Below are positions 5,500 to 34,118 of a stretch of DNA of 64,000 bases, one piece after another. Position 1 is the first letter of the stretch; every line of letters starts with the position of its first letter. The stretch is from Psammoneis japonica (Eukaryota), in assembly GCA_008632985.1 (NCBI GenBank), contig QPGO01000144.1:62001-126000 (forward strand), read 5' to 3'. Made by a program: the position numbers and the translations under genes. A model generated the notes under the pieces. That model saw only the letters and a list, made by a program, of their open reading frames with translations, had not been told where the DNA came from and searched no databases.

Positions 5500-8400
5500 C
5501 CCCCCCACCACTGCTAACTCGGATCCCTTGCACAGGGAGGCAGTCACCTGATCCACCAACCTTTTCACTCTCAGAGGAAGCTTTGTTGGAGCTGATCATG
5601 CTGTGCGAAAATTCCGGTGCTGCTTGTCAGTTTTGCAAGCAGTTGCTTGCCCTGTCACAATGATTTCACAAGAAGTGGAAATTTGATTGTTCCCAGTGTC
5701 TTGGGCCAGACTTGTTGGTGAAGAAACTCCACAAGAAGGTTTTCCTGCCCCAGCCTGACATTCGCATCATTGGCGGACAGGAAGTCACTTGCTTTTGCAT
5801 GCTGGACATGTTGAGAGATTTGCTCACCCACTCAATGTTTGACAATGAGCACAGCCTCAATGTGAACAAGTCCCTGCAGGCATGTTTCCACAAGTTCGTT
5901 CCTGTTGATGGGTGCAATCTTGGCAAGAACATGTCCAACAAATGGTGCTTCAAAACATGTGATGACCTCCCCAACAACTTTGACTGTGAGAAAGACTTGT
6001 TCTTGCCAATCAGCTTGTGCGCTGATCAGACAGGGGCTGATGCCTGTCAAAGGTGTCCCCTTGAACCCTGGTTGTTTTGTGTTCTTCTTGACAAGAGGTT
6101 GTGCTTGGCGTCACCTTGGGTTCATGCCAAGCACAGACAAGGGTGGGGCAAGTGGCGCACTTGATGAAAACGGCAATGTGAACAAAGACGGACAAGTGGG
6201 CAAGTCTTCTTCATCAATCATGCAGGTTTGCCATGACATGTTGTCTTTCCTCTCATAAGATTTGAAGGGACTTGGGTGGTGTTTGCATTGTGTCCCATCT
6301 CAACAAGCCAACACTTGGATGGACCAGGTCCACTTGAGCATTTGGAAAGGACAGTCCATTGGATGGCTGCCTCAAGAGGCAACAGAAGCTTGTGGCGGCC
6401 CTTCTTTTGCATCTGCACACAATGAACCCGCTGCAAAGCACCTTTGACAGTGTCAACTTTGGCAGCAATCTGTGGGGTGTGTTTTCAGCAATGGCTGATG
6501 ATCACCTTCATTCCTGGGAAGCAGGTGGTGTGGAGAACATCATGCAAGTCTTGCACTTTGGACTCACCAAGACAGAGAAGGAAAACTTTGAGATGGAGCT
6601 GAAAGCTGTCATTGGAAGCTGCAGATCCACGGCCTTGGTGCAACACCCAAGAGGTTGCTTGAGTTCTGGCTTCAGCAGAAAATGACTCTCCAGACCCACT
6701 CTGAAAAAATGGGTTTGCTGTTCCACCTGTGCACAGCAGTGCAATGTCTCAAGCCATGTGAGACAATGAAAAGGGCACATGAACAAAAGAAGAAACAAAA
6801 AACATTTCCCTCAACTGCAAAACTTGCCTCTCTGCAGAAAAAACCAAAGAAAAGCAAGAACAAAAAGGCAAATGCAATCAACAAGCCATCTTCCAATGTT
6901 TCTCAAGGAATTGATGACAGCTCATCTTCCAACAAGGAGAGCTTCAGTTGGTTGTGGCAAAAGATCTTGCTCATCCACGACTGCCTGTGGGCGCAACAAA
7001 AAGCAACAAAGAGTCACTCAGGAGGCTGCCTGAGACAGGGAAAATGCACAAAAGGCTGCTGAGGAGGCAGCACAAAGGAAGCCTCCTCCAAGGAAGAAAA
7101 TGACAAAAAACGCTTCCACCCACTGCTTTTCCCTGCAGGAAGGACACTTTTTTTGCCACGGACCATGGCAGCAAAGATCCTTTTGATCACAAATTGGGAA
7201 CAATCCAGTGTGTCATCAAGCACCTGAAGCTCCACAGATTTGCTTTTTTGCCAGAGGATGACTTCAATGAGTTTCAGCTGAATCAGCTGTTCATCAAATC
7301 TTGGAAGATTTTGAAAACCATCAAAAGCAAGGAGGATGATTTTTGCCCACCACATGACGTCCTTGACTCCATCACATGTCCCATTGTTGGGGACTGCTGT
7401 GATTGCCTTTTACAAAGAAATCAGGGAATGCTTTCAAACGTTGACATGTGCATTGACTCCAGGCAGTTGGCCACAGAGGAATCATGTGAAGGGGAGGATG
7501 TGGCAGTTCAGAATCCAGGCCAGTTCTCTTGCCCAATGGAGAATTGTGTTGTGAAGCAATTGACACACGGGTGCAACATCATTCAACATGATGACCTTCT
7601 CTTCTTTCTTGGAGCACATTCTTTGCTGCCATGCATTTTGTCATTGTTCCCACCATCTTCTGGGAGCAATGCAGAAGGATCATGCTGTGATTTGCTTTGG
7701 GACAAAGTGAGTGGTTGGCTGCATGGACACCATCCTGTGCCAGGGTGACAACTTGGCAGACTTTGACATGGGAAAGGTTGAAGCCCAGAACCACAAGGAC
7801 TTTCATCATTCAAGGCTTGGTGACAACATGCAATCACATGCATTGACAGGTGAGAGACTTTTGAAAACCAAAGCAAAGAAGATCTCCAAGGTGGCCCAGA
7901 AGCACAGTGAGGCCACTTTCCTCCAACAGACATGCAAACAAATTTGTGAAGCCCTTCTGTGCAGAAGGTGTGTGGATGAGATCGCCGTGCAGAAGTCGGA
8001 AGAAAACCTTGCATTGCATGGTCTTGTAGATGATGCATCCTCCATTGCCAATGGTGATGGAGAATCCAAAGTTGCCCAACACATGCCACACTTTGTCTTC
8101 CAGCACGATTGTTTTGAGGACCTGTTGGCACTTGATTGACATGGTGACAAAAGCCCAACTGACAAGGAAATGAGCACACCTTGCTGAGCCTTCCTTGAAG
8201 CCATCCAAGAACTGGAACCAGACCAACCCAGGTTTGACATGTGGAATGAAGCAAAACTTGCAAATGGTGACTGCCTCTGAGCTTGCCCACTGTGCTGCTC
8301 CAAAGAGGGCCCCTGGTTTGATTGGGCAGAAGTCCATTTTGACATGGATGATGCATCTTGCAAACCCCGCCCTGCATGTGTCGTCAGTTTCTACAAGGAT

Positions 8401-8772
8401 TCTGGTGGGGTTGCAAAGGCAATCATTCATTCTGTTGACTGCAAGTTGGTGTCCACGTGGGTGACCGAGTCCGATTTCGGGGACAACAGATTGTTCACTC
8501 ATCATGTGCAAGAATTTCAATCATCTGGAAGACCATCAATGCAGAACATTGGCCTTCATTCAATGCATCGTGGCATTCTCTGTTCCTGTCAAAGCAACAC
8601 AAAGACCCGGTCCCCCGAAGTGTGCAATCAAAACCAGAGGAGGGAACACCAAGTGATGGTGGTGAAACCCCGCTTGGACTGGGCAAAGATGTTTTGCAAA
8701 TGGACAAGGGAAATGATGTCAAGAGAGAAGAGTGCTGAGGGCACTGACAAGTGCATCTTTTGGAGCAATTGA
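5500..8772 (+). pseudogene. Degenerate Plavaka/CACTA(CMC)-like transposase, second subfamily
   Basis: Motifs across frames: LFLPISLCADQTGADACQRCPLEPW (cf. LY.DKTG...YPLEP), AWRHLGFMP, CHDMLS, FDSVNFGSN.WGVFSA..DDHLHSWEAG, GERLLKTKAKKISKVAQK. Frameshifts, and the I.GD block appears deleted near 6270. Confidence 0.7.
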
Positions 8773-9525
8773 AATGCAGACAATGTGGGCTTGCATTGGA
8801 GGCTGGATTGCCAAGCTGTTTTCTTCCAGTGTGGCTGGAAATGATGCACTGCCACAACGAGAGCCTCCGTGCAATCTTGGGTTGGAGATGCCATGTTCAA
8901 GGACTTCCTCTCCAGCCATCGCTGCTCTGTCAGTCTCCTTCAATGCCTTGTTGATGCCTTTTCTCCGCCTTTGCAAACCCACTCTCTTTTTGTTGTTGCT
9001 TTTCCACATGTCAGAGCAGATCAAATCTTTGGTCTCAGTCTGGCTTGCTTCAACCAGCAGATCCACAAATGATTGCTTGTCCTCCTTCTTGAGGTTTGTC
9101 AAGTTGTTGCCCTTGTGGTGCACCAATGGAGCCAGTTTGTCTTGAATCAGATTCCTGATTGCATGAGTTGCATCCATCATCTTCTTTTTCATCTGGGCTG
9201 AAGCATTGTCTCCAGCGATGGGCCGCCAGTGGGGTGAATCAAAGCTGCACAGCAGGGACCCATTGACAACTTTCTCCTGCATGTCCTCCATGGACACAGG
9301 ATCATCCATCATGAGGCCATTGTCATGCTTGGTGCATTTTTCAGCAATCTCAGCATCATTGTGCAGTCTGACAGCATGAACCCATGCATTGTGGGAATGC
9401 TTTTGCTTGATGCATGCAGCAAGAAACTCTTTGTGAGCTTCTTCAACTTGTGCATTGGTTGCAATGCCACCAGCCAACACACTTGTGAGTGACTGCTTGG
9501 ATTCCTGCAACCTGATGTGGCACCT
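8770..9525 (-). pseudogene. Hypermutated ORF remnant of unknown function, cut by a MITE
   Basis: Protein-like, Tyr-free ~250-aa stretch (QESKQSLTSVLAGG...KKMMDATHAIRNLIQDKL) convergent with the transposase. Confidence 0.35.
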
Positions 9526-9746
9526 GACGCGTTCCAGACGTAGGTGGGAATCCGTGTGACATTGGGCCCGTAGACTTCTACGTGCGAGCTCCGCAGCAAA
9601 ATTGCACGGCAATTAAAATGCCAATGATCGCCAACAGAAAATGAGGCAATTTTGCGAACGAACAAACTCGCACATGATTGAAGCACATCATTTTTTACTT
9701 GGCCAGTTGCATTCTTCAGACATTGAAGAATGCAACTGGCGCATTG
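9526..9746. mobile_element. Truncated MITE, GTTCCAG-TIR family (subfamily A), inverted relative to 31981-32376
   Basis: Starts gacgcgttccagacgtaggtgggaatcc, the reverse complement of the right part of the 31981 copy. Second TIR absent. Confidence 0.8.
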
Positions 9747-9933
9747 ACATTCTCACAGGATTTTGCTTTCTCCTGCAACCTCTGGGCCTCCGCAGAGTCA
9801 CACCCACTGTTTCATCCATGACACCTGACATCTGGAGGCCATCAAGACCAAGATCGCCATCTCCTGCAAGGTCTGTTTCAGCATTGTTGTCATTGGATTT
9901 GCCATTGCCAAGAGAGTTTCTTCAATGTCCGAA

Positions 9934-10160
9934 TCAAAAATCCTTCAAGAGAGTCTTGTCACCAATGTCGCGCTTGAAGCAATTGTCTTTGATGCAAAGC
10001 TCTCCCAAATTGGCAAATTTGTTGAGAATCGTGAAATTGCTCATGAAGGAATTGTTGTTGAGATGAAGTTTCACAAGAGACATTAATTCTCCCATTGCAG
10101 TTGGAACTGGGCTGGCGAAGTTGTTGTTGTTGAGTCCAAAGATCCCAAGAGCTGTTCCAA
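9934..10160 (-). pseudogene. Hypermutated leucine-rich-repeat gene fragment
   Basis: ALGIFGLNNNNFASPVPTAMGELMSLVKLHLNNNSF...LGELCIKDN matches the plant-type LxxLxLxxNxFxGxIPxxxGxL repeat, with LYL->LHL and LYI->LCI. Confidence 0.6.
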
Positions 10161-11977
10161 ACACCCCTTTTTCAAAAAAAATCACGTCAAAATCAATCGG
10201 GCAAAAAGCACCCAGAAAACTTTGATTTTGGATTGTTTGATGTGGTTTTTCATGTTGGCCAGCAGCTGTCAAATCAAAAATTGATCTTGACGACACACAT
10301 GAAAAATGAAGTTGCAAAATCAAAGCAACATGACCCATCAAAATGTCGCTCCACAGTGTTGAGCTTCATTGTCAATGTCCAAACCACACCAACCAACAAC
10401 AAAAGCATCACTCCTGGCTCAATCATTGTCAACTTGTGGCAACAAAAGTGACCTCTTTAGAATGGCAGCAACTCATTTGATTGCAGGGCCAGTCTCACAC
10501 CAGTGTGAAGTGCTTGCAGTTGACTCGTGCTGTTTTCAGATGAAGCAAAGCTGTGCATTGTTTTCTTCTTGACATCAGCCATGATAGATTTTGGATCCCT
10601 TGTGGTGGAAAGAGGGGACGAATGAATGTTGCCATTGATCTTCTGCATTAAATTTGGTCATGTGCAGTTCTGTTCTTGCTGTGAGCATCACTCCAGATGC
10701 CTTGTGGCTTGTGTTTGTGGCCACACGACACAATGACAATTTTTTTGGGACAAACAAGCTGCTGCACTCTGCATGTGAGGTGCAAAAAAAGGAAAATGTG
10801 TGACACCACTGGATCCACCACATTGATTTTACAGACATTTGTGGCTCCGCTTTTGCCCTGGCCTTTGGTGCCCCAGATGCTTTGTGGCTCACTTTTGTGT
10901 CAAAACGACACAAGAAAATTGTTTTTGTGCAGCAACAAAAAATCCGTGGTGCTGTTCTTTGCGTGAGCCACAACATTTCACTTTGTCTTTTTTGAGGTGC
11001 ATCATGTGCAATCAACGCCATCACAAAAGGGGTTCAAAAGTGTCGTCGTGTGTGTTGCTTGAGATCGGATGATCGGAGCGAGATGGCACCAAGCACTGAC
11101 AGGCTGAAGCCGTGTTTGCCTGTTTGTGTGGTTGAAAGATTTGGTTAACTTGGATTTGGACAACTTCATTTTTCACTTTTTGGGTGTGGACGGGTCCGGT
11201 GTGTGAGAAACGTCAAGTGCTCATCTGCAATCCACCGTGCCCACCTGGTTCTAAAGAGCACCCAGAGTCTCAAGAGTGGCAGGGTCCAAAGCGTCATTGA
11301 AAAAGAGCACCACCTTTTCTGCACGGCTCTCACTCTCTTTGCTGCCACTGCTGGTTTTGTCACTGGCAATTGCTGCAGTGATTGCTGCAGCAGTCACAAC
11401 AGCAAGAACAGCTGGCACAAAATCAATCCAACAACTCCAAACAACAGACACTTTCTTGATGCTCGTTGATCATTGGTGCTGGCACTCTCCCACCATCGGT
11501 CACCCCCATTGCTGCATTGCTTTCATTGGGCACATGTGCTGCCTCTGCCATGGCACCCCTCTGGTTCTGAAGGGCTTGAACTTCTTGCAGCATGGTTTCG
11601 CCGGAATGTGGCTCCTTGCAAGCGGAGTCATCGTTTGCAACTGAAGCAGCCATCTCTTTTGGGCCGGAGTTTGTCGCAATGAAGACAGTGGCACAGAGCA
11701 GTTTGAAGCCTCATGCTGCAAGCTTCAAATGATTGGCATCCCTGCGGACTGGCCCACTTGTGTCTTTTGTGATGCAAAATGAACACATCATTTGCGCCTG
11801 ATGACCAGCACCAATCTGAAATGGGGCGTGTACTTGCAGCATTAGATTGCCCAAGTGTGTTGTGTTCTCTGATGACGAAAGAATGAAATAAACGCTAAAC
11901 TACAACATGTGACAGCAGAACTATAAGTGATGGTAATTTAAAATAGCCAGAGTTATTACCCAAAGATATGACTGGAG

Positions 11978-15658: not shown

Positions 15659-18600
15659 CTACCTCCAATCGCTTCCGTGTTTCATTGCCTTCTTGCTTTC
15701 GGCGGGAACAGTTGCAATGAATCGCGTCACTTCAGTGCCTGCGAATTCGCTGCCCTCGACGATAAATCCACTTGGCACATCTTCTTCCTCTGCAACATAT
15801 ACCTGGTAAAACCCACGCCCATCTAAAGATGATATGGAAAAGCCGCAAAGTGAGTTCTCTGTTCAACAACAGCAGCAGCGCAGCAAAAACATTGAGCGGA
15901 TCACGTACCAACGCAACACAGCCCGTCTTCAAAATAATCAAATATAGTAAAACTACAGTCTGCACCTTCCGGGACATAGTGCGTTTCGGAGATTAATCCC
16001 CCCTGCCGTTCTGCGTATGTAGCGACTGCACGTAAAACAATTGTCTCGTTGTTACAACTCAGCGTCCAGCCGGTTTCCTCGGGAGCATTGTCCAGCTTAA
16101 TGACGATAGTAACGGGGGCCATATCTTCAGCCATTGTCGGAGCGGCAGTTGGTGCCTTGGGTTCATCGTCTTGTTTGTCATCTCCTCCTTTGTTGTGAGT
16201 CAATATCACAGCAAGAGCGACGACTATAGGAATAACAAGAAAGAGGACAGCAATCCATCTACACCATCGTCGCCGTTTTGCATCTTTCCTGCTGCTGACC
16301 CATGTTGCCCATAGGAAAGAATGTTTCTTTTCTTCTACCAGCTTGTCTTGCTGCTCCGCACTTTGCTCCGCAGCAGACACGACAACTGCTTCCGCATCAA
16401 TGAATGCCGCATTTTCATTTTCTTCCATAGATCCTGAGGAACTCGAGTCTGAATCGGACTCGTCACTACTACCATCGTCGTCCTCGTAGCTTGATTCATC
16501 GGACCCGCTGCCCGATTCTTCGTCTTCTTGAATCTGGTCTTCAAGCGGTGAAAACATATCCTCTTCTTCACTGTCATCGTCTTCGTCCGTCTCTTCATCC
16601 TCATCTTCAAATACCTCAAGCGGATCGTTGTTAATAGCACCTATTGCATACGCACCGGGTGACCTAAATCGTTCGTCCTGTGGAGTGACTCGAATCTTAC
16701 TCACACGTTGCATTGACGGCTGGAGTGGCATTTGTGGGCGTATTGCAACAGGGGGGGGAGCCGAGGAGTCTTCGAAATCATCATCATCCTCGTATTCATC
16801 TTCATCGTATTCATCGTCGTATTCATCGTCATCTTCAGAATCGCTGTCTTCGTTAATGGAATCCAAGGATCGGCCCGTTTGCAACGCAGATGGCCCATAA
16901 TTGTCATCGTCATTTGACGCGGAATATGCAACGCTTCTTCCAGTAGAAGGAGTGACGCCCAAAATTTCATCAGCCAGTTGCTCCGCTTCTTTCATTTTCT
17001 TTTTCATCAACGCGTCTTTTTCTTCTTGACTAATGTTGCTTATTCCATAGTACGAGCCGGATTTGTTGAGATTTGCACCATCGCCGTGAGGGTTTTCCTG
17101 AGGAAGTGATTTAGAGGATGCCGTGACGCCCATTCGCTCATCTGCTAATCGATCGGCATCCTTAATTCTTTGTTTTGCAAGCTCATCCTTTTCGTCTTGA
17201 GTCAGTTTCTTGGGAGGCGCCTTTTTCATAGCCGGAGCGACAGCACCCATGCGTTGATCCGCGAGTCGATCAGCCTGCTTAATTCGCTCTTTAGCCAATT
17301 CATCCTTTTCCTCCTGAGTCAGTTTTTTTGAAGGCGCCTTTTTTATAGCCGGAGCGACAGCACCCATGCGTTGATCCGCGAGTCGATCAGCCTGCTTAAT
17401 TCGCTCTTTAGCCAATTCATCCTTTTCCTCCTGAGACAGTTTCTTCGGCGGCGCCTTCTTCATGGCCGGAGCGACAGCACCCATGCGTTGATCTGCAAGG
17501 CGATCCGCCTGCTTAATTCGCTCTTTAGCCAATTCATCCTTTTCCTCCTGAGTCAGTTTCTTCGGCGGCGCCTTTTTCATGGCCGGGGCGACAGCACCCA
17601 TGCGTTGATCCGCCAATCGATCCGCCTGCTTGATTCGCTCTTTCGCCAATTCATCCTTTTCCTCCTGTGTCAGTTTCTTAGGAGTCGCCTTTCTCATAGA
17701 TTGGGATACTGCACCCATGCGTTGGTCCACGAGTCGATCCGCCTGCTTAATTCGCTCTTTAGCCAGTTCGTCCTTTTCTTCCTGGGTAAGCTTCTTCGGA
17801 GGCGCCTTTTTCCTAGCCGGAGCGACACCCATGCGTTGATCTGCAAGTCGATCTGCCTGCTTTATTCGCTCTTTAGCCAGTTCATCCTTTTCCTCCTGAG
17901 TCAGTTTCTTTGGGGACGCCTTTTTCATGGATCGGGATGCTACGCCCATGCGTTGATCCGCGAGTCTATCCGCCTGCTTTATTCGCTCTTTAGCAAGTTC
18001 ATCCTTTTCTTCTTGAGTCAGTTTCTTTGGGGACGCCTTCTTCATAGATGGGGATGCTACGCCCATGCGTTGATCCGCGAGTCGATCCGCCTGCTTAATT
18101 CGTTCTTTAGCAAGTTCGTCCTTTTCCTCTTGAGTCAGTTTCTTCGGCGGTGCCTTTTTCCTAGCCGGAGCGACACCCATGCGTTGATCTGCAAGTCGAT
18201 CTGCCTGCTTTATTCGCTCTTTAGCCAGTTCATCCTTTTCCTCCTGAGTCAGTTTCTTTGGGGGCGCCTTTTTCATGGATTGGGATGCTACGCCCATGCG
18301 TTGATCTGCGAGTCGATCCGCCTGCTTTATTCGCTCTTTGGCAAGTTCATCCTTTTCCTCCTGAGTCAGTTTCTTTGCAGGCGCCTTTTTCTTGGCCGGG
18401 GCGACACCCATGCGTTGGTCGGCAAGCCGATCAGCCTGTTTTATGCGCTCTTTCGCCAGTTCATCCTTCTCGAGTTGGGTAAGCTTCTTAGGAGGTGCCT
18501 TTTTCATGGATTGGGATATTGCACCCATGCGTTGGTCCGCGAGACGATCAGCCTGCTTTATTCGCTCTTTTGCCAGTTCATCCTTTTCCTCCTGAGTCAG

Positions 18601-18981
18601 TTTCTTTGAAGGCGCCTTTTTCCTTGCCGGGGCCACACCCATGCGTTGGTCGGCAAGCCGATCCGCCTGCTTTATGCGCTCTTTGGCCAGTTCATCTTTC
18701 TCGAGCTGAGTTAGTTTCTTCGGAGGCGCTTTTTTCATAGATTGGGATGCTACGCCCATGCGTTGATCCGCAAGTCGATCCGCCGCTTTGATTCGCTCTT
18801 TCGCCAGTTCATCCTTCTCGAGCTGGGTCATCTTTTTTGCAGGTGACGAACTAGCAGCTGCAGCGCCCGACGCTGCAGTGCTTCGCTTCTTCTTTTTCTT
18901 CTTCTTGCTGCTGCTGCTACCGGTGCGTGAAGGACCATCAATGCGCTTTCTATCGATTTCATCCGTTTCCAACGTCGTCAT
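15659..18981 (-). CDS. Single-pass membrane protein with 15 tandem 38-39-aa repeats and a small C-terminal extracellular domain
   Basis: Repeat KKLTQEEKDELAKERIKQADRLADQRMG(VA/AV)...KKAPP, acidic linker, PGAY motif, TM (IAVLFLVIPIVVALAVIL), PTAAPT stalk, domain LDNAPEETGW...DGLCC. An intron at ~15908-15823 joins DGRGFYQVYV...GSEF. Confidence 0.8.
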
Positions 18982-19016: not shown

Positions 19017-20410
19017 ACAATGGACTATGACTCTTTCCGGTTAGGTCGTGTGATTTGGCTCGACAGAAATCAGTAGTCTAAGCAGCAGAAGAAACGCACG
19101 TAAAAGTGGGGAGATAGAAAGCTCAAACGGGACGGCATTTCAGTGACCATTTTTGAGTTTCGGTCATTGCAAGTGTTGCTATTTATGCCTAGAAGTCATT
19201 TCTTTGTTGTTTTCTTTGGTACATTAAGAATGTATTTAAATGTCGTTTTTGACGCTATGACCATAGAGGCATAAATACCGCCTCAATCGATTCGTGCGCG
19301 TTGATGACTGCCGAAAATCGAGGATCACGCAAGCAACAGCAATCTTTCGCGCTGTAGAGTCATTTACGTAGAAATGTGTAGAACAGTACCAAGATAATTA
19401 CTGAAAAGTCTGTCTGTCTGTCCTTAGTGAATTTTAACTTCGCGAAAAATGGACTTGACTGTTTTCTGATCAGGTGTATTTTTCTTCAACACATTTGCAA
19501 AAATACACCTGACCCGACAACAGTCAAGTCTATTTTTGCACAAATTGTGTGAACATAACAGTTTCAGTACAAAAACGTGTAGATTCCACAGGCGTCCACA
19601 ATTGTTTTGTGCTTTTTTTCACATTGCGGGTCATTTTCGAAAGACTCCCATTGAACGCCGTCAAACTCTGTGTTCTCTAAGGCAGGGTCCTGCCTTGTGT
19701 CTACATGCATCTTTCCAAGAAAGCTGTCAGCAGTGGCACAGTCTCTCAGCAGAACTAAATGGAGGCAAGTCTGGACACCTGCCGAGAGACTGGCGAGCTT
19801 GTGGCAATGCTGGCAATGCAGAAAAATGTGAGGCAGCGCGGGGTTGGCATGCAGCTCCAGCAGCGGCAATGGACTGTGATTCTTTCTGGTTGGGCCATGT
19901 GATTTGGCATGACAGAAATCAATGAGAGCAGAAGAAACACACGCAAAAGTGGGGCAGATTAGAAAGCTCAAACGGGGCAGCATGTTTCAGCAACCATTTT
20001 TGAGTTTCAGCCATTGCAAGTGTTGCTGTTTGTGCCTGAAAGTCATTTCTTTGTTGTTTTCTTGGGTGCATTGAGAACGCATTTAAATGTCGTTTTTGAT
20101 GTCATGACCACAGAGGCACAAACACCGCCTCAATCAATTCATGCGCATTGATGACTGCCGAAAATCGAGGATCATGCAAGAGCGCCGACAAACCACCACA
20201 CAAAACTCTGTTCTCCAAAAGGCAGGGCCCTGCCATGTGTCTCCATGTGTCTTTCCAAGAAAGCTTTCAGCAGTGGCACAGTCTCTCAGCAGAACTGAAT
20301 GGAGGCAAGTCCAGACATTTGCCGAGAGAGACTGGTGAGCTTGTGACAATGCCGGCAATGCAGAAAAATGTGGGCAATGCGGGGTTGACATGCAATTTCA
20401 GCAGTGGCAA
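19017..20410 (+). repeat. ~530-bp tandem duplication (19017-19866 with MITE; 19867-20410)
   Basis: Both units start caatggact.tga.tctttc.ggtt.gg and end gca..t.cagcag.ggcaa. The second unit is heavily TA->TG/CA mutated. Confidence 0.9.
19334..19653. mobile_element. MITE, CAATGG-TIR family, with internal palindrome
   Basis: Termini caacagcaatctttcg / cgaaagactcccattg. Absent from the sister duplicate. Homologous to 26978 and 36100. Confidence 0.8.
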
Positions 20411-20811
20411 AATCGAGACTTCGCATCGAGCAGGGTTTCCAGACAAACAAAACTTGTTGCGTGCAGTGGCAACTGCTCGCAATGTTAAGAGAGAAAGAAG
20501 ACAATCGCCAGGGGTGGTGGAATCCCCCATCTAATGCGATTTATTTTTTGATTTTTTGGTTCGGCGCCGATTAGGGGGACTAAAATCTAATCTTTTATAT
20601 GCAACCACCAATTTTTATTAATACAATAACTTACGTGGATGACGTAGCAATACAGTACCAGTGTTCCTGTAGCACTTACGTCGACGGCCGATTTATGCCT
20701 TTCAAAACCCTTCAATTCTGAATACTTTATTCAGATTCAAACAGGCTGTCGCGAGTTGGTGCAGAACAACACAAAACGGCATCACTTCTCCAGCGCTCTC
20801 TTCCCCGCACC

Positions 20812-24184: not shown

Positions 24185-24913
24185 ATGTCTCTTTTTGTGC
24201 GAATTTTCGTGTTGACACTGGCGCTCTTGTGTTCGCAAGTGCTCTCTTTTAATGCGGGTATGAATGGAATTCGTCCTTCAGTTATTTCTTTAAGAGCAAG
24301 TCCCCCACTCCCAAACTTTTGTTCGGAGTGTGGACAAGCATCCATGGAGTTACGAATCCCCGATGGTGACGAGCGAGAACGAGCTGTGTGTGCCGCTTGC
24401 GGTCGAATCGAGTACACCAATCCAAAAGTGGTGGTTTCCTGTGTCGTAAGGACAAACGACAAACACATACTACTTGGAAAGCGAGCGATTGAACCACGAA
24501 AGGGTTATTGGGGAATACCGCAGGGTTTTCTAGAACATGGAGAGACGACTCGACAAGCCGCTGCCCGAGAAGTACGAGAAGAGACGGGAGCTGTTGTATC
24601 GGATCTAGAGTTACGAGCCGTCTACAATGTACCTGGGTCGGTTCAGATTGTCTACGAAGCAACTGTGGATGAAGAGGTTGCTCAAAATCAAATTGCATCA
24701 TCTACTGCAGAATCGTCCGAAGTAGCATTCTTTTCACCCGAAACCGTACCATACGATGAACTCTGCTTCCCGACCGTTCAATGGGCTTTAGATCATTGTG
24801 TTTCAATGGAGAAGAGCGAATCAACTCCACATATTCAACAAAAGACGAAGTTCTACGATGCTAAACTTGACTTGTGGAGTGAGTCTGAGGACGAACCACC
24901 AAGAATTTCGTAG
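24185..24913 (+). CDS. Nudix hydrolase with N-terminal zinc ribbon (NUDX23-like), probably plastid-targeted
   Basis: FCSECG...C.ACGRIEYTNPK zinc ribbon and Nudix box GFLEHGETTRQAAAREVREETG. Signal peptide followed by S-F. Confidence 0.9.
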   Translation: MSLFVRIFVLTLALLCSQVLSFNAGMNGIRPSVISLRASPPLPNFCSECGQASMELRIPDGDERERAVCAACGRIEYTNPKVVVSCVVRTNDKHILLGKRAIEPRKGYWGIPQGFLEHGETTRQAAAREVREETGAVVSDLELRAVYNVPGSVQIVYEATVDEEVAQNQIASSTAESSEVAFFSPETVPYDELCFPTVQWALDHCVSMEKSESTPHIQQKTKFYDAKLDLWSESEDEPPRIS

Positions 24914-24978
24914 CTATTGCAAGTCAAAGTGAAGACAAATCAAGATGACTAGCTATAGGTCGCATACGATACTGCTCC

Positions 24979-26660
24979 TCACATCATTGTGAACGTGTGT
25001 ACAGATCCGGATTTCTCACCATTCGAATCGCGCTCTCTCGAACCAACTACAAGAGTTGTGCCGTTTCCTGACAGCGAAATGGACGATCCAAAGTAGTCTC
25101 CACTCTAGCCGCTCCATTTAATCGACCGCCAACTTGAACCCAATCCTTTTTGCTTGCATTGTATTGAAATGTGACGACTTGTCCAGCATTTGTCCGTCCA
25201 TCAGCATCATGTATAGGTAGCTCCCCACGGCAAGAATGCTTCCAGTTCTGCTCAAGGACACGGCTGCACCAAATCGTTCGCCGTGTTGCTGACTCAAGAG
25301 CGGCGAACCACGTACGTTGTGCCCACGTGGCCGTTTCGCGGTCCAGCGTGTAAACTACGACTCTTCCAAGAACCGTGCCGTAAAAGACATGTCCCGGTGC
25401 ACCCACAGCCAAGATCAAACCCGTGTCATCCAGACAACTTGAACACCCAAACAAACCTTCGGCAACTTGTCCAACAATGGGAAAGCCGAGTGGTTCCCAA
25501 AGCGACGATGAAACATCATGCTCGCACACGTGGACTTGTCCCGAGGCATTTCCACCCAAGTCACCAAAGTGAGCACCAATCGTCACAATCGTTCCCTGGC
25601 CATTCAAGGAAATGGACACGCCAAAGCGGTCGCCACGTGCTTGTCCAAGCAAAATTTGTCCATGTTGGTCCCAGGAGCATGTGTCGGCATTGCAGCAAAA
25701 CAATTTTGCAGATCCGGAGCTGCTGCCATTTCCAGTGTCATCATTGGGAGCTCCAATGGCGAGAATGCTCCCCTCTTGTGACAGTGACAGGGAACATCCA
25801 AAACCACTGCTGCTGCTGCCAGTGGTGTTCCCAACAATGCCCTTGCTGATCTGGTGCCATCGCTGCGTTGCAGGGTTGCACCTGTGCACTTGAACACTGC
25901 CGACATCATTCAGTCCCCCGCTGTCACTGCATGTTGCTCCTGTTGCAAGAATCGTTCCATCAGGACTCAGCACAATGGATCCTCCAAACTCATCACCATT
26001 GGCTGCTCCCACCAATTGTTGACCCAGCGGCATTCAAAGACTGTCATGACTGTGGCACAAGACAGACACACAGCCGGGGTGATGAGAAGAAGGAAGGGCT
26101 TGCGATGCTCCCACAGCAAGGATTGCACCATCATGTGACAAGGAAACGGCTTGACCAAACCAAATGGTCAGGAGATTTTCCAGTCAATTCTCTAGTCCAC
26201 GTTGGAGCCAGGTTTGGATTGTGAGATTCAAGACTTCCTCATCATGAGTCAGCAAGAAGGACAAGGAGTTTGGGGTCCCAGTCATTGGGGGTGCATGTGT
26301 TGATGGCACAATGGAAGGTGACACGGCAAAAAGTCTCTTGGGGGAAACAGTGGGCTCCAGAGTCTGCTCCAGATTCTGTCCATTGTTGCGGTTTCTGGCT
26401 TCATTGTTGTGATCGTTTCTCAATGACACCGGCACTGCAATCGCCAGCACAGCAACAACAACAAAAATCAAAAGCACAGCAACCCCCGCAAAAATTGTGA
26501 AATGATTGCATCCTTGTCACACAGACACACTCCATCAGAATGGCAAGACGATTCATTGGCGTCCTCCTTTGTTGACAACGAGTTCACGGTTGATGCATGT
26601 TGTGCATTTGTTCTTTGTTCTTTGGCACAAAATTCCAATCTGAAGATGGCATCATCGCTT
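24979..26660 (-). pseudogene. FG-GAP-like beta-propeller membrane protein gene, 5' three-quarters hypermutated
   Basis: Repeats GDEFGGSIVLSPDGTILATGA and GDRFGVSISLNGQGTIVTIGA, TM LLIFVVVAVLAIAVPV. Frameshifts. Tyr is lost at coordinates above ~25390. Confidence 0.8.
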
Positions 26661-26977
26661 CTTTGTTTGCCACCCAGCCATGCTTGTCAATCAACAAAAT
26701 CAAATCAAATGTGTGTTGGAATGCGATTGATGAAGTTTGGCAACAATTGCACAGTGCTGCAGCCTCAATTCCACAACCACTTTCTTCTGACAGTGAGCAT
26801 GGTGACAAAATGCCGAGCCCGCTGCTGCAGTGCTCCTTGTCACCATGGCTGCTGTGCCAGAAAAGAAGGACAATTGCGCCGGCATGGTTGCCTTTTGTGA
26901 GACTGTGTTTTTGATTTCACTCTGCGAACAGCAGACCACAGCCCATCTTTTGATGTGTTTTCAACCCAGGTGGGTCA

Positions 26978-27186
26978 CAATGGCAATCTTTTATGCTGCA
27001 GAGTCATTTGCACAGAAATGTGCAGAACATTTGCAAAAATGCACCTGACCCGACAACAGTCAAGTCCATTTTTGCACAAATTGTGTGAACACAACAGTTT
27101 CAGCACAAAAACGTGTGGGTTCTGCAGGCATCCACAACTGTTTTGTGCTTTTTATGTCACGGGTCATTTTCGAAAGATTCCCATTG
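26978..27186. mobile_element. MITE, CAATGG-TIR family, internally deleted
   Basis: Termini caatggcaatctttt / cgaaagattcccattg. 3-bp TSD tca/tcg. Lacks one arm of the internal palindrome. Confidence 0.8.
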
Positions 27187-28997
27187 TCGGGGACAATGCA
27201 CGAGGTTTTCTGCACATTTCCATGTGACACACACTTTTTGCACCACAACAGTGTGCAATTTTTGAGCTCCCACATGATGCCATCTTTTTTTCATGCCTCA
27301 CCCACAAACCACAAATCGCGCACACCAAAAATGGCGCCATGCCGCTGCCATGAACTTGACCATCCTTGCACCATCGTCCACAATGACAAAGAAGGTGAGA
27401 ATGCCAAAAGATGTCAATGAGACTGAGGTCAATGTGATGATGTGGTTGAAGCTTTGATTTTTGCCATTTGTTGTGTCTTGTGGACACCAGCCTTTTTCCT
27501 CATGACATTTTTTATGCCAATTTTTCTCATCCTCAGATTGCGATGCGGCATTCTTTGACACGCAAGGCTCTGTTGACTTGATGCTTCATACACACAACAA
27601 TGCATGTCTTTGTGATGTGTCAGTGTGATTTTTATGATGCATTGAGCACACTTTAAGTTGGCGTGGATGACACTTTTGGGTCAAGTGCAAACATCAAACA
27701 TTGGCACCAAAAAAAGAATGATTTTCTGCATTCAGTTTTGAGGGCGCATGGTGATGAAGAAGCCACTGGATGAGTCCAACAGGTGCAACATTGTAAAGCA
27801 GAACAAAAAAAAGTGACATCTGTGTGTTGCATCCATTTTGCTTTGTTCTGAGGTGGAGCAGGTCAATTGCACATGTGGAAATGCTGTCTGCATTTTGTTG
27901 TTGCCACATCAGAGTGCACGACATCGCAATGTCTGCACGCATGACAAAATTACATTGCTGCATTGTAAAATTTACTTGTCTGCACATGATGGTTTTTGTC
28001 ATTTGGCCAATTGTCAATCTCCTGCCATTCTTCATGTTTGAACACAGGTGCTTTTTAATTTTCATGCTCAGCCTTTTTCACAACAACCAACGATCTTCAA
28101 CGACAAGCCAAACATTGCAACTGCGTGCAATGAAATTTTCATCATGCAAAGTGTGCGCTGATCATTCAATCAACAACTGTGCTCCAATTGGCCCATTCGT
28201 CCACATTGTCCTCTTCATTCCACATGTCTTGTCCGCTCTCTTGCAAGAATTTCAAATGTGCCGCTGCCGTGTTGGATGTTTCCTCATCACTGTTCCAAAA
28301 AAGCCACACTGCATTTCTTGCATTTGGGTGAACATCATCGAGAGGAAGAGGTCCCTCGAAATGCAGAATCGCATCACTGCTCCCCTCTTGACGTCGTGTC
28401 GTCTGCTTCTTTTTCTCTTTCTTCATTTTGCCCGTCCCATTTTTCTCTTCCTTGTTCATCTTGGCGCCACCTGTTTTCACCATCTCTGGCGTCTTTCCAT
28501 CCGAATCCTTCTTTTTCATCGATCCCGTCGCTGTCGCCTTCATCGTGTGTCACTTTGTTTTGGATCCATGTTTCTGACTTCTCTCTGTGTTGTCTCCATT
28601 TCCGAATGTTTCTTTGTGATTGTTCGCACACATCACTTGAAGGCACCCACGTGTTCTTCACGTGCCTTAAAGCGCATGTAGAAATCCATGTTGTTTTCCA
28701 GCACATGCACCCTTTCTCCTGATGCATGTTTGCACAATGTTTTCTTCCATCAATTCTGCACTCCGCATTGCCCTTTCCCAGCATGATCTCACGCAGGATT
28801 TCTCTGGGAGAAGTCACATGCGCGTCTGGCTGGTTTTTGTGTTTAAAACTCCAAATCCCATCAGGCGCGCATGTGACTTCTCCCACCACTCTGGCATGTT
28901 TCCACAGAAACCAGAATTTTGTGACTGACGCACGACCAATCTGGTGAATGCAATGGCGGACCCACGACCACAACAATCAGAGCATTAGAAGAAAACC

Positions 28998-29897
28998 ATG
29001 TCAGATGAACTCCGTCCATCCAATGATGAGGATTTCCGTCACTGGATGACGGAGACAGTTGATGGTTTTGTTCACGCTGACGCTGCTCGTTGTTCGGAGG
29101 AACAGAGAGCAAAGGATGCAAAGGCTGCTGTGTCAAGATCGGCGGAAGCAATGGCAGAAGCCCATTGTGCGTTGTGGCTGCAACGACCGCACTTGAGAGT
29201 GCTTTGTTAAATCAAGCAACAACCACTCGCGAATTTAAGCACACCCATGCACAGTGCATCAAGTCATCGATCAAGACACACTGTTCAGACAACGACCATG
29301 TTGTTGCAGTGGAAAATTGCAGCAAAGCAGAAATGAGTTTCCAGCACTTTCTTCGCGGCAACGCATTTGATGCAAAAGAGCTGGGGCTCCCAATCTCCAT
29401 TGCGGGACACAAAAATCAGAATGTGGGCTAAACATGCTGCACAGCCATGACTCGACGTTGCTTCTGAGAAGCCTCAGGGCAAATTCTGACACAGACACCA
29501 CAAGAGCAGCAGAGAGGGAGTTTTCTGCAATTGACAGCATCAACAAATCCATCCACCACCGTGCCGTGCCACTCCTTCAAAGGCGACATCTAACACAGCC
29601 GCAGCACATCCTGAAGGACACAATCACGTTGCTCCACAAGGCCCTTGACGATTTGACAAGGAAAGACGTTGCCTTGCAGTGACTTTGCATGATCTGAGGC
29701 CAGGCACAGATCAAATGTGGGGAGGGACATGGACCGCGATCCGGGCTGTGGATGAAGAAGCCATGGCAAGAGAAAGGGTCCTGCAGCTGGCATTGCAAAT
29801 TGAGGCACAATTGGTGGCTGTCAACCAGCCTGACCACAGCGCCGACTTTCAGCAGGCAATTGTGGCTGCCAGGGAACATTTCATGGTTGCAGGATGA
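28998..29897 (+). pseudogene. Broken helical ORF of unknown function adjacent to the transposase 3' end
   Basis: Consecutive protein-like fragments (MSDELRPSNDEDFRHW..., AIRAVDEEAMARERVLQLALQIEAQL) in shifting frames, Tyr-free. Confidence 0.3.
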
Positions 29898-29998
29898 CTG
29901 AGTGGACCATGCAAGTGGACACTGCATGGAATCTGTGAGGAAGCAATTGCTCTGAAACTGCACACACTGTGAGTGAATGACAGATTGACACACGTGTC

Positions 29999-32900
29999 CT
30001 GTTTTAGAAACAAATCTGACCAACACTTCCTTCTGTCCTGTGTGGCCCAAACAAGCGGGGCCTTTTCTTGTGCTTCTGCTGCTCCTGGACATTCTTCACA
30101 AACCAAAACATTGTCCCCAATTGCTTTGACAGGGACAACACGTAACTTGGGTGAGTGCTGAGTCTTCTCAGGCGTTGAAAGCCAGTTGTTTCATTTGTGA
30201 TCAAGCTGCCAGCAACTGACCAAGTCTGTGTGCTGATGCCGTTGCCTCACAGTTCTCTGGTCAGCTTGACAAGCAGTTGGATGGACCACTGCAAAAATCG
30301 ATCCTGTGTCTTCCTGTTCAAAGAAACACAGCAAACGGGAGGGAAACTGTTGATCGCCCTTTCGTGTGCCAAAGGTCACACAGGCAAAGTCATGCCATGG
30401 TCCTTCACTTTTGCAATTGGGGTGCGCACAGCAAACATCCCTCCCGTTTGCATTGCAAAACTCTGTCTTGCAAGTCAGGTGTGTGTTTTCACTGTCTTCA
30501 CCAACACAATCCTCCCACTTTTCCGACATGAAGTTTGGCAACACAGGATGAACTTGGCAACGAGCATGCTCACTGTTCCACTCAAACGTCACAGCGCCAA
30601 TCCCTCGGTTGCAGGTGAGAGTGAGTGCACTTCCTCCCAGTGTGTGATTGTCCATCCTGACTCTTGATGATTCCTTTTTCCCAGTTGGCAAAATCCAACT
30701 GTCAGCTGAAATTGCGGCATTGAGCCTCATTTGGTCCTCCACATGCGACACGACCTGCTTCAGAAAACTGTTGAGGTTGCGTTGTTGTGTGGCAGATGAC
30801 GGCAGCTTGAAAAAGTCTTTCAAGAGACATTCCCCCAAGCCTGCGTCAAAGTTCATCGCATGTTGGCAATGACAAAGAAACACTGGGAGATGGAGTGTTT
30901 CATGAAGCTTTTGAAGCTTTCCCCCACATCCTTCTGTTCGCGGGACGAATTGCACTGTCCGGTCAATGAGGAGACGGATTTTCTTGTGTGTTTTCTGAAT
31001 GGATGAACTGGGAGTTGCGCTTGTGATGGGTGGATTGCCTAGCCTGCACCATGCGTGGAAGACAAGAAGGTCCTCAAGCAATTGAATGAATTGCTGGACG
31101 CTGCAGTCAAGTCTTTTTCCCTTGCATTTTTTCTTTTTTTGGTTGTCGTCACCATCCTCAGCCTCACTCTTCTCTTTCTCATCCTCATTTTCGTCCCAGT
31201 CACCCTCTTTGGACTCCTCTGACCTTTCATCATCAGAGTTGTCCAAGCACTCACTAGGTTGGTGGCAACTCTCAAAGTTTGCTTTGGGCATCTTGCGATT
31301 CTCTGGAACAATGGGTTTGTCTGCGTCCTCGTCAAGGAAGCATGACTCACATGCGTTTCGTCCCTCGCTGGTTGACAGGAGAAGGCAGAAAACAAAAGCC
31401 ATTCCAGCCCAGTGGTGAGAGTTGAGAAAGGCAAGCAACGTTGCTCCTCCTTTGAAGTTTGTTTGCAAAAAGGATGCTTTGCAAGTTGACCGGTGATTGC
31501 TGAAAATCCTTTCCACCATGCTGTCCACCTCACTTGCGACCACAGGTGTCATGCTGTCTACAAATGAATTGATCACCCTTTTCAAGGTGCCGTTTTCAAA
31601 GAGATGCATCATGTCGATTGCTGTCGCAAGGGTGATGCCACATGGTTGTGCACCAAAGTCTGCCTCAAAAAGACAGTTGGCAGGTGCGCTGTGTTGCTTG
31701 AGGCAATGCAAGATGCCCAACCAGTGCTTCCTTTCTTGGTCTGATCTGTTGTCGTCGTTGGCCTCAGTTTGCACTTGGTGGAGATCCAGTCCCAGGACAA
31801 ACTTGCATTCAATCCATGGGTCGTCCAGTTTGTTGAAGCCAGCGAGGCAAAAACGACAGCAACGTTGACGACAGTTGTGACCTCCGCATCGTCCAACGAG
31901 ACAGTCGCCACTTTTTGCGTCTCCTGTGATGAGAACGATCAGTGGGATCACATGGAGGTGTCGCATCTCATCCCCTCGTCGACGCGTTCCAGCCCTGGGT
32001 GGGAGCTCGCAGTGCTGACGTGTGACAACAACAATTTTTGTCATCCGTCACATGTTTCGTACGCAGATTTCTACGTGTGATGTTTAAAAAAAATTGTCCA
32101 GACTCGCTGTTTTGCAAAGCCCCAGACGTTTTATATGACAAATTTATAGAAACAACAATGTGCCAGTTACATTCTTCAATGTCTGAAGAATGTAACTGGT
32201 CAAGTAAAAAATGATGCACTTCAATCATGTGCGAGTTTGTGCGTTCGCAAAATCGCCTCATTTTCTGTTGGCGATCATTGACATTTTAATTGCCGCACAA
32301 TTTTACTGCGGAGCTCGCACGTAGAAGTCTACGGGCCCAATGTCACACGGATTCCCACCTGCATCTGGAACGCGTCCGTCGCACGCATGTTTTCATGCCT
32401 CCTTTTCTCATGACTTCCAAAAGTGGCTCCAAAACAACGTGCAAGCAAGTGTGGCAGTCTCTTGACGAGCGTCCCTTCTCCGCCTTGTGATTGTTTGAGA
32501 GATTCTTTGCCGCAGATGACGACATCTTTTCCAAGTCCAGGAGACAACCAATTGGTTTCCAGACATTCTTGTCCAACCATTTGTGAAGGCAACATGCGCA
32601 GAGGTCATGATCACTGGCTCTCCGCAATGTGATCCCATCCCTTGTGTCCTGCCAGTCTTGTCGACGTAAATGACATTGCACTTGAGAAATTGTTTCTACG
32701 GGTCAGTCATCCGTTCTTCACAACTGCACCTGCACCACTCACCCGCCAAAAGGCACTTGTCATCCGGTCCCTTCGCTTTGCACTTCCCAAAAGGATTGTC
32801 TGGATCGGCCACATTCTCTCTGCTGCGCCACAGGTGAGGATCAAGCAAAAACTGTTCCCAAACCTTTGTGAAATCCCATCTTGGCACTGACGCTCGTTTT

Positions 32901-33700
32901 GGCAAACCGGTTTTGAAATTTTTGGTTTCTAGAGTGACAGGAACAGACTTGCTGGGTGGAAGAGGGAAATGCTTGGTTAAGGTGCGCATCAACTCTTTTC
33001 TCCTTGGCAGAACTGCACCAAGCTCAATGTTGCTGTTGCCAGTGTGCCTCTCAATGAAATCAACAATGCAGTCGCACAATTCCAGGGGAGCACCACATGT
33101 GTCCATGAGCTTCTTGCACAACTCTGCGCAAGCTCCGTCAAGATTTGTCAAAGAGGGAGTGGAAGCCAAGCCCTCTTCTGCAGGAGCGTCACACCTGATC
33201 CCCAAATGTTGGTCCTCATCATTGATGTCCTCTTCCTCCTCCATTGTCACGCCCAACACTGCAGCAAAGGATTGACCACCGCCAACATCCAAATCGTTCA
33301 TTGCTGAAAGTTCAACTCCTTGCATGCTGTGGTTTGATGAAACAGAGGACATGTCATCCATTCCGTGCGGTGCATCATCCAGGGAGGGGAACAAGGGGCT
33401 GCTGCTTGGATCACTCATTGAAGATCTTGGGAATCTGCTGCGAGTTGATCGCCTTGGATGGGATTCGTCATCATCAGAGGATGAAGAGGAAGAGCTGCCG
33501 CTTTCTTTGGGTGGCCCCTCTGTTGTGGCAGGAATGTCACTTTGATCTGGGATTGGATCTTGGGTTTGCAACTCTTGGGCAACTGAGCAACACGTCGGCG
33601 AGCATCTCCAATGGCAGGCCATTCGCAAAAACCACAACCGGGACAGAGAAGAGGGTTTCCGTCCATTGCAAATCAGACAACATTGACAGGGCCTTCATCA
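29999..33700 (-). pseudogene. Plavaka/CACTA(CMC)-like transposase, near full length, interrupted by a MITE
   Basis: DKTG...GEPVIMT, WKPIGCL, RDCHTCL, LIVLITGDAKSGDCLVGRCGGHN..CRFC, DMMHLFENG, KLQKLHETLH...NFDAGLGECLLK, CCAHPNCKSEGPWHDFACV, FPSRLLCFF, WSDLF. Family assignment is from remembered motifs, not a search. Confidence 0.8.
31981..32376. mobile_element. MITE, GTTCCAG-TIR family (subfamily A), 396 bp
   Basis: Perfect 12-bp TIR gacgcgttccag/ctggaacgcgtc and 4-bp TSD cgtc. Removing it restores the transposase frame GGMKTCVRRGDEMRHL. Confidence 0.95.
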
Positions 33701-34118
33701 AGACTCACACTCGTTGTCCTTGTCTTGTGGATGAGAAGGGAAAAAAAGAACAACACACAAAAAATGGCAGGAAATTGGCAAACATTGCATTGTCTTCCAG
33801 ATTTGGATGATTCTCACAGGTGTGACATGTCTGCATTTTGATTTTTTTTCTGGCATCCACAATGAATGTTGCACTTTTTATTTGCCATCAAAATGCAGGA
33901 CATTGTCTCCGTTGAAATGCAATGACAGCCACATCAAAAAGCAAGTTGGGCCATTCGTTGTCACACACAAACACATTTTCAAATTTCAAATGTTGCTGAC
34001 AAAATTTGTGCAATGTCACAGAGAAAAACAGAGTGCCTGGCTGTCTCAACATGACCCAAATGATGGTTGCACTGTCAAACAGTGCCGCTCCTCTCATTGT
34101 TGCCGTGAAAAGATCAAG

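Follow-up and report, generated by a model that had tools for sequence, protein, structure and literature searches.

We analyzed a 64,000-nucleotide window of DNA from Psammoneis japonica (GenBank assembly GCA_008632985.1, contig QPGO01000144.1, positions 62,001 to 126,000 of the forward strand). The window contains a tandem duplication beside an intact gene. The first part of one copy (A) has a normal content of TpA dinucleotides, and its counterpart in the second copy (A') has almost none. We consider it highly probable that A' shows the outcome of a region-limited transition hypermutation that acts on DNA and rewrites TpA and CpG into TpG or CpA, and that this process ran to saturation over about 35 kb of transposon-rich DNA in the window. 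The changes carry a distinct signature and lie in sharply bounded domains. Their direction in the depleted tracts is established, and they are burst-like, leave the GC content as it was, and depend on the flanking bases.

The tandem duplication and its two states

An initial annotation of this DNA had described A and A' as a tandem duplicate that serves as an internal before-and-after control. The duplication is real, but its unit is larger than was noted, because it includes both A and B, and B is itself inside the TpA-poor island (Table 1). Repeat finding and blastn gave two copies of this ~540-bp unit in the window, and the duplication was recovered as repeat families D2, D4, and D6. By blastn, A (19018-19333) and A' (19867-20180) are 85.3% identical over 320 columns. 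The annotation had also placed a miniature inverted-repeat transposable element (MITE) next to the island. This is the 317-bp insert M1, which splits A from B, is missing from the A'/B' junction, and has two relatives in the window. The island spans B, A', and B' and excludes both A (TpA observed/expected ratio [o/e] of 0.64) and M1 (0.49). Only five TpA remain in it, at 19678 (CTAA), 19702 (CTAC), 19756 (CTAA), 19960 (TTAG), and 20084 (TTAA). The intergenic DNA beside it (20486-20811) has a TpA o/e of 0.79.

Table 1. Positions of the features discussed, numbered from the first base of the window; a dot marks a feature given without a strand
Feature	Position	Strand	Remarks
Copy A, unmutated	19018..19333	.	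5' flank of minus-strand gene 15901-18981; 17 TpA (o/e 0.64), 18 CpG (o/e 1.3)
MITE-like insert M1, 317 bp	19334..19650	.	Between A and B; 15 TpA (o/e 0.49), not TpA-depleted
Copy B	19651..19866	.	Within TpA-poor island; 3 TpA (o/e 0.27), CpG o/e 0.44
Copy A', mutated	19867..20180	.	2 TpA (o/e 0.08), CpG o/e 0.54, TG 1.56, CA 2.02
Copy B', mutated	20181..20410	.	0 TpA, CpG o/e 0.33
TpA-poor island, 905 bp	19581..20485	.	Bounded by flanking TpA at 19580 and 20486; TpA o/e 0.08
Intact gene	15901..18981	-	1026-aa protein of ~39-aa repeats; TpA normal
NUDIX gene segment (negative control)	24233..25052; duplicate 42665..43496	.	Both copies in normal DNA
Depleted tract 1	1..11830	.	TpA o/e mostly 0.00-0.18 per 500 bp; runs off window start; sharp edge at 11831
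Depleted tract 2	25382..40580	.	Holds M2, M3, and transposase relic; overlaps N-terminal part of FG-GAP open reading frame; edge 25381/25382
Depleted tract 3	55838..64000	.	Runs off window end; edge 55837/55838
Transposase relic, 618 open codons	30194..32047	-	C-terminal half of Plavaka-like (CACTA/KDZ-type) transposase; 0 Tyr
FG-GAP repeat open reading frame	25047..26033	-	Straddles tract 2 edge at 25382; Pfam FG-GAP_2, E = 6.8e-14
MITE copy M2, deleted form	26978..27186	.	Tract 2, mutated
MITE copy M3	36096..36430	.	Tract 2, mutated

We aligned 19017-19337 globally with 19866-20184, which gave 315 aligned columns and 10 gap columns. The 42 mismatches in this untrimmed alignment were 36 transitions and 6 transversions. 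Among the alignable TpA of A, 14 of 16 were rewritten in A' (8 to TG, 6 to CA), one site apart from the 13 of 15 (7 TG, 6 CA) counted by hand in the initial annotation, and the three example strings quoted there are present in the sequence. The earlier estimate that about 11 of 18 CpG had changed was reproduced exactly (4 to TG, 7 to CA). TpA loss (14/16) thus exceeds CpG loss (11/18), in line with the earlier claim that it was no weaker. A' itself has just two TpA, both common to A, and nine CpG, two of which differ in A. Other differences had been called few, which is roughly right: there are 8 other transitions, 3 transversions, and the 10 gap columns.

Substitutions were then counted by dinucleotide over the trimmed comparison (19018-19333 against 19867-20180; 310 columns), and the enrichment was significant for TpA and CpG alike. 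Transitions outnumbered transversions 34 to 3. The 32 TpA positions of A took 14 of the transitions (hypergeometric p = 3e-7), and the 36 CpG positions took 11 (p = 5e-4); the remainder consisted of one at a CpG of A' and the eight others. When 34 transitions were placed at random 200,000 times, no placement reached 14 on TpA. In total, 28 of the 34 lay within pyrimidine-purine (Y-R) steps. A has A/T where A' has G/C at 21 of the 36 untrimmed transitions, which is opposite to fungal repeat-induced point mutation (RIP).

The NUDIX gene segment and its duplicate served as the negative control. This pair is 86.8% identical over 836 columns. It differs by 51 transitions and 44 transversions; of its 34 TpA, just 3 to 4 are TG or CA in the other copy. 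The A/A' pair differs from it in TpA-to-TG/CA change (14/16 versus 3/34; Fisher p = 7e-8), in CpG change (11/18 versus 8/50; p = 6e-4), and in the transition:transversion ratio (34:3 versus 51:44; p = 2e-5). The NUDIX product is closest to pennate-diatom proteins, with a best match 72% identical and with matches of 61% in Amphora and 54% in Seminavis. In the frame tried, the second NUDIX copy has six stop codons, which makes it a pseudogene or a copy split by introns.

B and B' are ~85 to 86% identical. Their differences comprise 20 transitions and 6 transversions and include two CA/TG double differences. Changes outside Y-R steps are denser in this part (19663-19869 versus 20203-20410), at 11 transitions and 6 transversions over 206 columns, than in A/A', at 6 transitions and 3 transversions over 310 columns; among those in B' are several GC-to-AT double changes. 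Of the eight other A/A' transitions, five are within one or two bases of a TpA or CpG event (19046-19048, 19132-19134, 19162-19164, 19191-19192, and 19253-19256). This suggests small multibase events or ambiguity in the alignment.

The assembled sequence is supported by data set X1, whose contigs were built from exact 31-letter words and whose word depth is ~59 to 66. An X1 contig matched A without a difference over 18950-19361. Another, over 19588-24262, had six differences, all at 21908-22012 and none inside the island. Slips of assembly or polishing are therefore excluded, although X1 possibly comes from the same sample as the window and so checks the assembly rather than providing independent biology. 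A second set, X2, is labeled "DNA?" but has GT..AG joints at 21149/21243, 22759/22859, and 23443/23523, and it therefore behaves like RNA. One X2 contig covers 18950-19086, so A is partly covered by a transcript-like contig, and the first NUDIX copy is covered by another. No X2 contig was found over 19282-20609, which is not evidence of silence.

Depleted tracts and dependence on flanking bases

Three tracts with the composition of A' add up to 35.2 kb of the window. In them the o/e is 0.06 for TpA, 0.40 for CpG, 1.73 for TG, and 1.71 for CA, versus 0.57, 1.01, 1.14, and 1.17 in the rest of the window, which we call normal DNA. Over the whole window the TpA o/e is 0.28. The GC content is 0.48 in tracts and normal DNA alike, and at each tract edge the change takes no more than tens of bases. 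TpA loss is uniform among the tracts; CpG o/e varies from 0.07 to 0.8. Different tracts have repeats in common (blastn), and the tracts hold the Plavaka-like relic, MITE copies, and highly repeated words; the island is a duplicate of a host 5' flank.

Pairs of repeats within the tracts show the same spectrum as A/A'. Two 300-bp pairs had transition:transversion ratios of 28:0 and 27:1, and a third pair had 156:31. Y-R steps contained 26 of 28, 25 of 27, and 131 of 156 of these transitions. Set beside the 51:44 of the control, the ratios of 28:0, 27:1, and 34:3 (A/A') point to a burst and not to slow decay. The tract pairs also have 37, 9, and 7 CA/TG double differences, and the NUDIX control has none.

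The effect on coding sequence is clearest in the transposase relic. It has 852 homologues at E <= 1e-3, and the Pfam family Plavaka was found in four of the six top homologues scanned, at or above the cut-off in three. None of its 618 residues is Tyr, versus 3.0% in 27 homologues (p about 7e-9). Opposite the 16 Tyr of its closest homologue (P0241, 60% identical), the relic has Cys at 11 positions (TGC 7, TGT 4), His at 3 (CAT/CAC), and another residue at 2, so that 14 of 16 Tyr face Cys or His. Phe was used as a control, and 27 of 29 were kept. The 618-codon frame is still open because a change of TA to TG or CA cannot make TAA or TAG. Related transposases at 13 metagenome loci, found with a five-sequence alignment as the query, lie in DNA with a TpA o/e of 0.49 to 0.77, all normal. 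A metagenome scan with the 618-aa frame alone gave 20 pattern matches and no relative. The Plavaka-like region as a whole extends over 30194-33694 on the minus strand.

The MITE copies tell a similar story. M1, in normal DNA, keeps 15 TpA, and 12 of these 15 are TG or CA in M3; in the right half of M2, all five are. M1 is unmutated and was probably a later insertion. Its summed word depth in X1 is ~5,300 versus ~59 to 66 for the neighboring sequence, a value that is not a copy number. It contains an internal 39-nt inverted repeat. The ends of the family are similar in inverted orientation and start with a CAATGG-like motif, and M3 has a possible 3-bp target duplication, with AAC at each side. 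We considered M1 as a family consensus for setting polarity, but this was weak, with one difference among the best-supported matches listed, and we did not use it.

At the edge of tract 2, the FG-GAP open reading frame has one part inside the tract and one part outside. Its conserved Tyr columns hold His (CAC, 25886) and Cys (TGC, 25526) in the tract and Tyr (TAC, 25352) outside it. The first 180 residues include no Tyr, six His, and seven Cys. This pattern looks like a spillover of hypermutation into a host gene, or else like a dead gene copy. The second FG-GAP frame of the window was unusable as an internal reference, because the two paralogues are just ~32% identical.

The loss depends strongly on the bases that flank the dinucleotide. 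We expressed survival, by tetranucleotide, as TpA or CpG in the tracts relative to scaled normal DNA, a ratio that is approximate. TpA survival was lowest in ATAT (0.009), ATAC/GTAT (0.02), GTAC (0.02), and ATAG/CTAT (0.026). It was higher in ATAA (0.10), CTAC (0.11), CTAG (0.14), CTAA (0.20), and GTAA (0.21) and highest in TTAA (0.64). In other words, about 98 to 99% of RTAY (R, purine; Y, pyrimidine) was lost but only 36% of TTAA. CpG loss was weaker and had its own flank preference, with survival ranging from 0.17 in TCGA to 0.68 in GCGC.

The flanks also set the product. YTAY becomes YTGY and RTAR becomes RCAR, a rule that fits 15 of 19 polarized DNA pairs and 23 of 29 when Tyr codons are included (p = 0.001). 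In the tetranucleotide mass balance, YTAY falls from 680 to 75, YTGY gains 951, and YCAY gains 350. Read on one strand, the event would be A to G in T-A-Y or, on the other strand, T to C in R-T-A. The rule also explains why M2 and M3 are mostly alike in outcome. A processive enzyme that works along one strand was considered and rejected, since TG and CA outcomes showed no strand clustering (z = -1.2 in the tracts and -1.35 in normal DNA). The run in A', with TG first and CA later, is therefore due to the flanks or to chance.

A Pfam scan of 119 tract open reading frames left 117 without a match at or above the cut-off; FG-GAP/Kelch was found on one, and there were two subthreshold hits. No viral genes were recognized in the tracts, and the tract frame at 34542-35402 had no homologue among longer proteins. 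Segment 27914-28900 in tract 2 has a summed X1 word depth of ~9,000 to 19,000 versus ~59 to 66 in the neighboring sequence, and it is a highly repeated element of no recognized type. Its differences from the other contigs listed are mostly transitions. Two single N bases, at 39373 and 56107, are both within depleted tracts.

Direction of change and competing explanations

At the A/A' locus, the direction is very likely a loss of TpA and CpG in A' rather than a gain in A. The claim of the initial annotation that A is the before state and A' the after state is thus supported, indirectly, by composition, by the proteins of the tracts, by double differences, by the direction of GC change, and by the TpA that survive. 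A (TpA 0.64, CpG 1.3) resembles normal DNA in composition, and A' (0.08, 0.54) resembles the tracts. Had A instead gained its TpA, the ancestor would have had to be TpA-free, a state that would itself have to be explained. A CA/TG double difference can arise only by way of TA or CG, which means that both tract copies lost TA or CG after their duplication. The TpA and CpG differences in A' run in opposite GC directions, and therefore a single C-to-T process on A cannot give both. Four of the island's five surviving TpA belong to the YTAR class, which is loss-resistant in the tracts as well (p = 0.004).

We propose the following mechanism. At the duplication, a contiguous 0.9-kb block made of B, A', and B' would have been struck, and A, beside the intact gene, would have been spared. 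The TpA part would be an A-to-G change at 5'-T-A-Y-3', most likely by enzymatic deamination of adenine to inosine in DNA. The CpG part may come from deamination of 5-methylcytosine (5mC) where the same chromatin is silenced, or it may be a further activity of the system itself. What sets the process off could be the duplication, as in RIP, or a silent state of the chromatin that extends into neighboring DNA. A duplication trigger looks RIP-like, in that both copies of a 540-bp unit carry struck sequence and the tracts are rich in repeats. The untouched A, NUDIX pair, tandem array, and M1, together with the struck edge of a host gene, fit a spread of silent chromatin or a selection against lineages with a mutated promoter. 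As an alternative chemistry, TET/JBP-type oxidation might act on both 5-methylpyrimidines, T and 5mC. In fungi, KDZ transposons are linked with TET/JBP genes, according to the accessible text of PMC12730594.

Several points weigh against the hypermutation reading or parts of it. The polarity at A/A' itself is set by analogy with the tracts and not by an orthologous outgroup. At most sites M2 and M3 agree on whether TG or CA resulted, which could reflect descent from an already changed copy, although the flank rule also explains it. Changes outside Y-R steps are denser in B/B' (17 in 206 columns) than in A/A' (9 in 310). The scaled context ratios are approximate, because normal DNA consists mostly of genes and the tracts do not. 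Adenine deamination is a putative chemistry. A pure homology trigger should strike both copies, yet A was spared, and the 836-bp gene duplicate, the 117-bp tandem array, and the highly repeated M1 are all unmutated. Finally, the CpG half may be a separate process, as B. natans (discussed below) has no reported CpG involvement.

In the classical RIP direction, TG/CA would be ancestral, and A would have gained its TpA by C-to-T change at CpA or TpG, as in Neurospora. The TG/CA-versus-TA differences are symmetric in an alignment of two copies, M2 and M3 are alike at most sites, and diatoms other than Phaeodactylum have DNMT4 enzymes related to fungal RID (PMC9998398, accessible text), all of which would be compatible with this direction. 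However, the TpA o/e of A, 0.64, is no enrichment when normal DNA has 0.57 and the adjoining intergenic stretch 0.79. C-to-T change in A could not create the 11 CpG that are altered in A'. An ancestor with two TpA in 314 bp would have been in the very state that is derived elsewhere in the window, and the TpA that survive in the island are of the loss-resistant flank class. We find this direction scarcely tenable. A sequencing or assembly artifact, in which modified bases in silent chromatin (5mC at CpG, for example, or modified A or T at TpA) were miscalled, is very improbable. Older long-read base callers are known to turn methylated motifs into false transitions, the pattern covers whole domains but just two palindromic steps, and X1 may be from the same sample. 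But X1 contigs reproduce A and the island without a difference, which noisy reads would not do, and TpA-bearing MITE words coexist in X1 with TpA-less tract copies. If a miscall were confined to one strand, no more than half of the reads would carry it, many TpA would persist, and CpG would be created; in fact, only 1 to 2% of TpA survive at RTAY, and CpG is lowered.

Unconstrained DNA might also have drifted to this state with no dedicated system, by slow, chronic CpG decay combined with a TpA-directed bias. The variable CpG loss (o/e 0.07 to 0.8) beside a uniform TpA loss, and the old look of the tracts, where most frames (117 of 119) have no recognizable Pfam family, favor such a history. 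We nevertheless judge it unlikely, as the pairs with 27 to 34 transitions have almost no transversions (28:0, 27:1, and 34:3, against 51:44 in the control), the tracts end abruptly, within tens of bases, and the intergenic stretch adjoining the island has a TpA o/e of 0.79. The B. natans signature, moreover, appears within hundreds of generations, as far as the accessible text of its report goes. RNA hyperediting would also place A-to-G changes next to a 5' U/T on both strands, if an ADAR-like enzyme edited A to I in double-stranded transcripts and reverse transcription fixed the result in the genome. Yet the promoter-region duplicate, the MITEs, and the DNA-transposase relic do not copy themselves via RNA, and the mutated block is contiguous, with its unmutated flanks in place. 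None of the hallmarks of retro-copies (poly-A tail, target-site duplications, intron loss) was seen at the mutated copies. ADAR favors G as the 3' neighbor, and the preference here is for a pyrimidine. ADARs are, to our knowledge, restricted to animals. RNA hyperediting is therefore an extremely doubtful source of these changes.

Relation to known mutation systems

What the window shows appears to be TpA hypermutation in a diatom, run to saturation and with added CpG loss. The closest precedent is the chlorarachniophyte Bigelowiella natans (Mettrop et al., bioRxiv 10.64898/2026.01.13.699255, 2026), and what follows is limited to the accessible text of that preprint. In mutation-accumulation lines, 230 of 231 mutations in two integrated-virus regions, one of a nucleocytoplasmic large DNA virus (NCLDV) and one of a virophage, were A>G or T>C, all on TpA, at ~1000 times the background rate. 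Elsewhere, the B. natans genome has clusters poor in TpA and rich in CpA and TpG, which are enriched in DDE-superfamily endonuclease and reverse-transcriptase domains. An ADAT2-like candidate was named, and a RIP-like or deaminase-like defense was suggested. The G:C>A:T rate was low, and the words "CpG," "trinucleotide," and "flanking" and any mention of diatoms are absent from that text.

The two cases agree in their signature and in its confinement. In both, TpA becomes TpG or CpA by A>G or T>C (here 14/16 in A', 12/15 and 5/5 in the MITEs, and 14/16 for Tyr to Cys/His), and in both, discrete regions are struck while the spectrum elsewhere is normal, here within one 64-kb window. The differences are as follows. 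B. natans is a rhizarian, whereas the host here is a diatom-like stramenopile. The TpA ratio (Rho) of the NCLDV region is 0.45 in the accessible text, and here the loss is saturated, with an o/e of 0.06 over 35 kb. CpG is lost as well (11/18 in A'; o/e 0.40 in the tracts) at constant GC, and this is not part of the account accessible for B. natans. Struck here were a DNA transposon relic, MITEs, a 540-bp duplicate of a host promoter, and the edge of a host gene. Loss here depends on the flanks, with far more of RTAY lost than of TTAA and a T-A-Y preference, a dependence that the B. natans text does not describe. Lastly, the B. natans process was seen in mutation lines, and ours is known from sequence alone.

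RIP in Neurospora and other ascomycetes offers a second comparison. As in RIP, there is a burst of transitions in repeat and transposon DNA that spills into unique sequence and ruins coding regions, and short tandem duplications are struck. RIP changes C:G to T:A, mainly CpA to TpA, and the DNA becomes AT-rich and TpA-rich. Here, in contrast, changes of A:T to G:C make up about half of the events, and TpA is erased while GC stays at 0.48; one copy of the duplication (A) was spared, and the 836-bp gene duplicate is untouched. The process is therefore RIP-like in its logic only, and neither its chemistry nor its direction is that of RIP.

Decay of CpG driven by 5mC would account for the CpG half, since it turns CpG into TpG/CpA in silent, transposon-rich DNA. 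TpA is beyond its reach, however, and yet TpA loss is the stronger of the two here (14/16 versus 11/18). Unlike plain CpG decay, the CpG loss is also variable and flank-dependent, with TCGA the most lost and GCGC the least. The accessible text of PMC9998398 reports DNMT4 in 31 of 60 diatom species and DNMT5-dependent methylation of transposable elements in Phaeodactylum.

The T-A-Y preference can be compared with that of known deaminases. Adenine deaminases of the TadA/ADAT2 family, and the base editors derived from them, convert A to I next to a 5' U/T, and some ADAT2 enzymes are reported to deaminate both A and C. The B. natans preprint cites DNA editing by ADAT2. The tRNA context of the bacterial enzyme, U-A-C, resembles the preference seen here. 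Eukaryotic ADAT substrates differ from it, as they mostly have a purine after A34. We know of no proven natural role of TadA/ADAT2 enzymes in genome defense. It is possible, though we would not call it the likelier outcome, that diatoms share a Bigelowiella-type DNA-editing genome defense. This would be an old adenine mutator at 5'-(R)T-A-Y-3' common to stramenopiles, alveolates, and Rhizaria, run to saturation and triggered by duplication or silencing, with CpG deamination alongside keeping the composition constant. A tandem duplication of host DNA as small as 540 bp could then start it, and, as in RIP, a viral origin of the target would not be required.

No report of TpA loss in the repeats of diatoms came up in our literature search. 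To date, A:T-to-G:C hypermutation directed at TpA is known from a single report, on a rhizarian alga, and a second major lineage, if true, would argue that it is widespread. New beyond that precedent are the flank rule, the co-loss of CpG at constant GC, and the choice of targets, in which transposons, MITEs, and a host promoter duplicate were struck while the gene flank was spared. The four-base flank dependence is a constraint that any candidate enzyme must reproduce. There are practical consequences as well. Constant GC hides such tracts from RIP indices based on GC or AT content. Hypermutated tracts keep long open frames, with a risk that they are misannotated as genes, and their Tyr-free, Cys/His-rich pseudo-proteins defeat domain searches.

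The remaining features lie in normal DNA. The protein of the gene at 15901-18981 matched no Pfam family. It has at least 14 tandem units (117-nt period) and is rich in Lys, Glu, and Asp, and the tandem array is not TpA-depleted. Other host genes of the normal compartment encode a BEACH/PH_BEACH protein (46237-52625, minus strand), a VTT-domain membrane protein (22792-23496, plus strand), and the second FG-GAP protein (43655-45718, minus strand).

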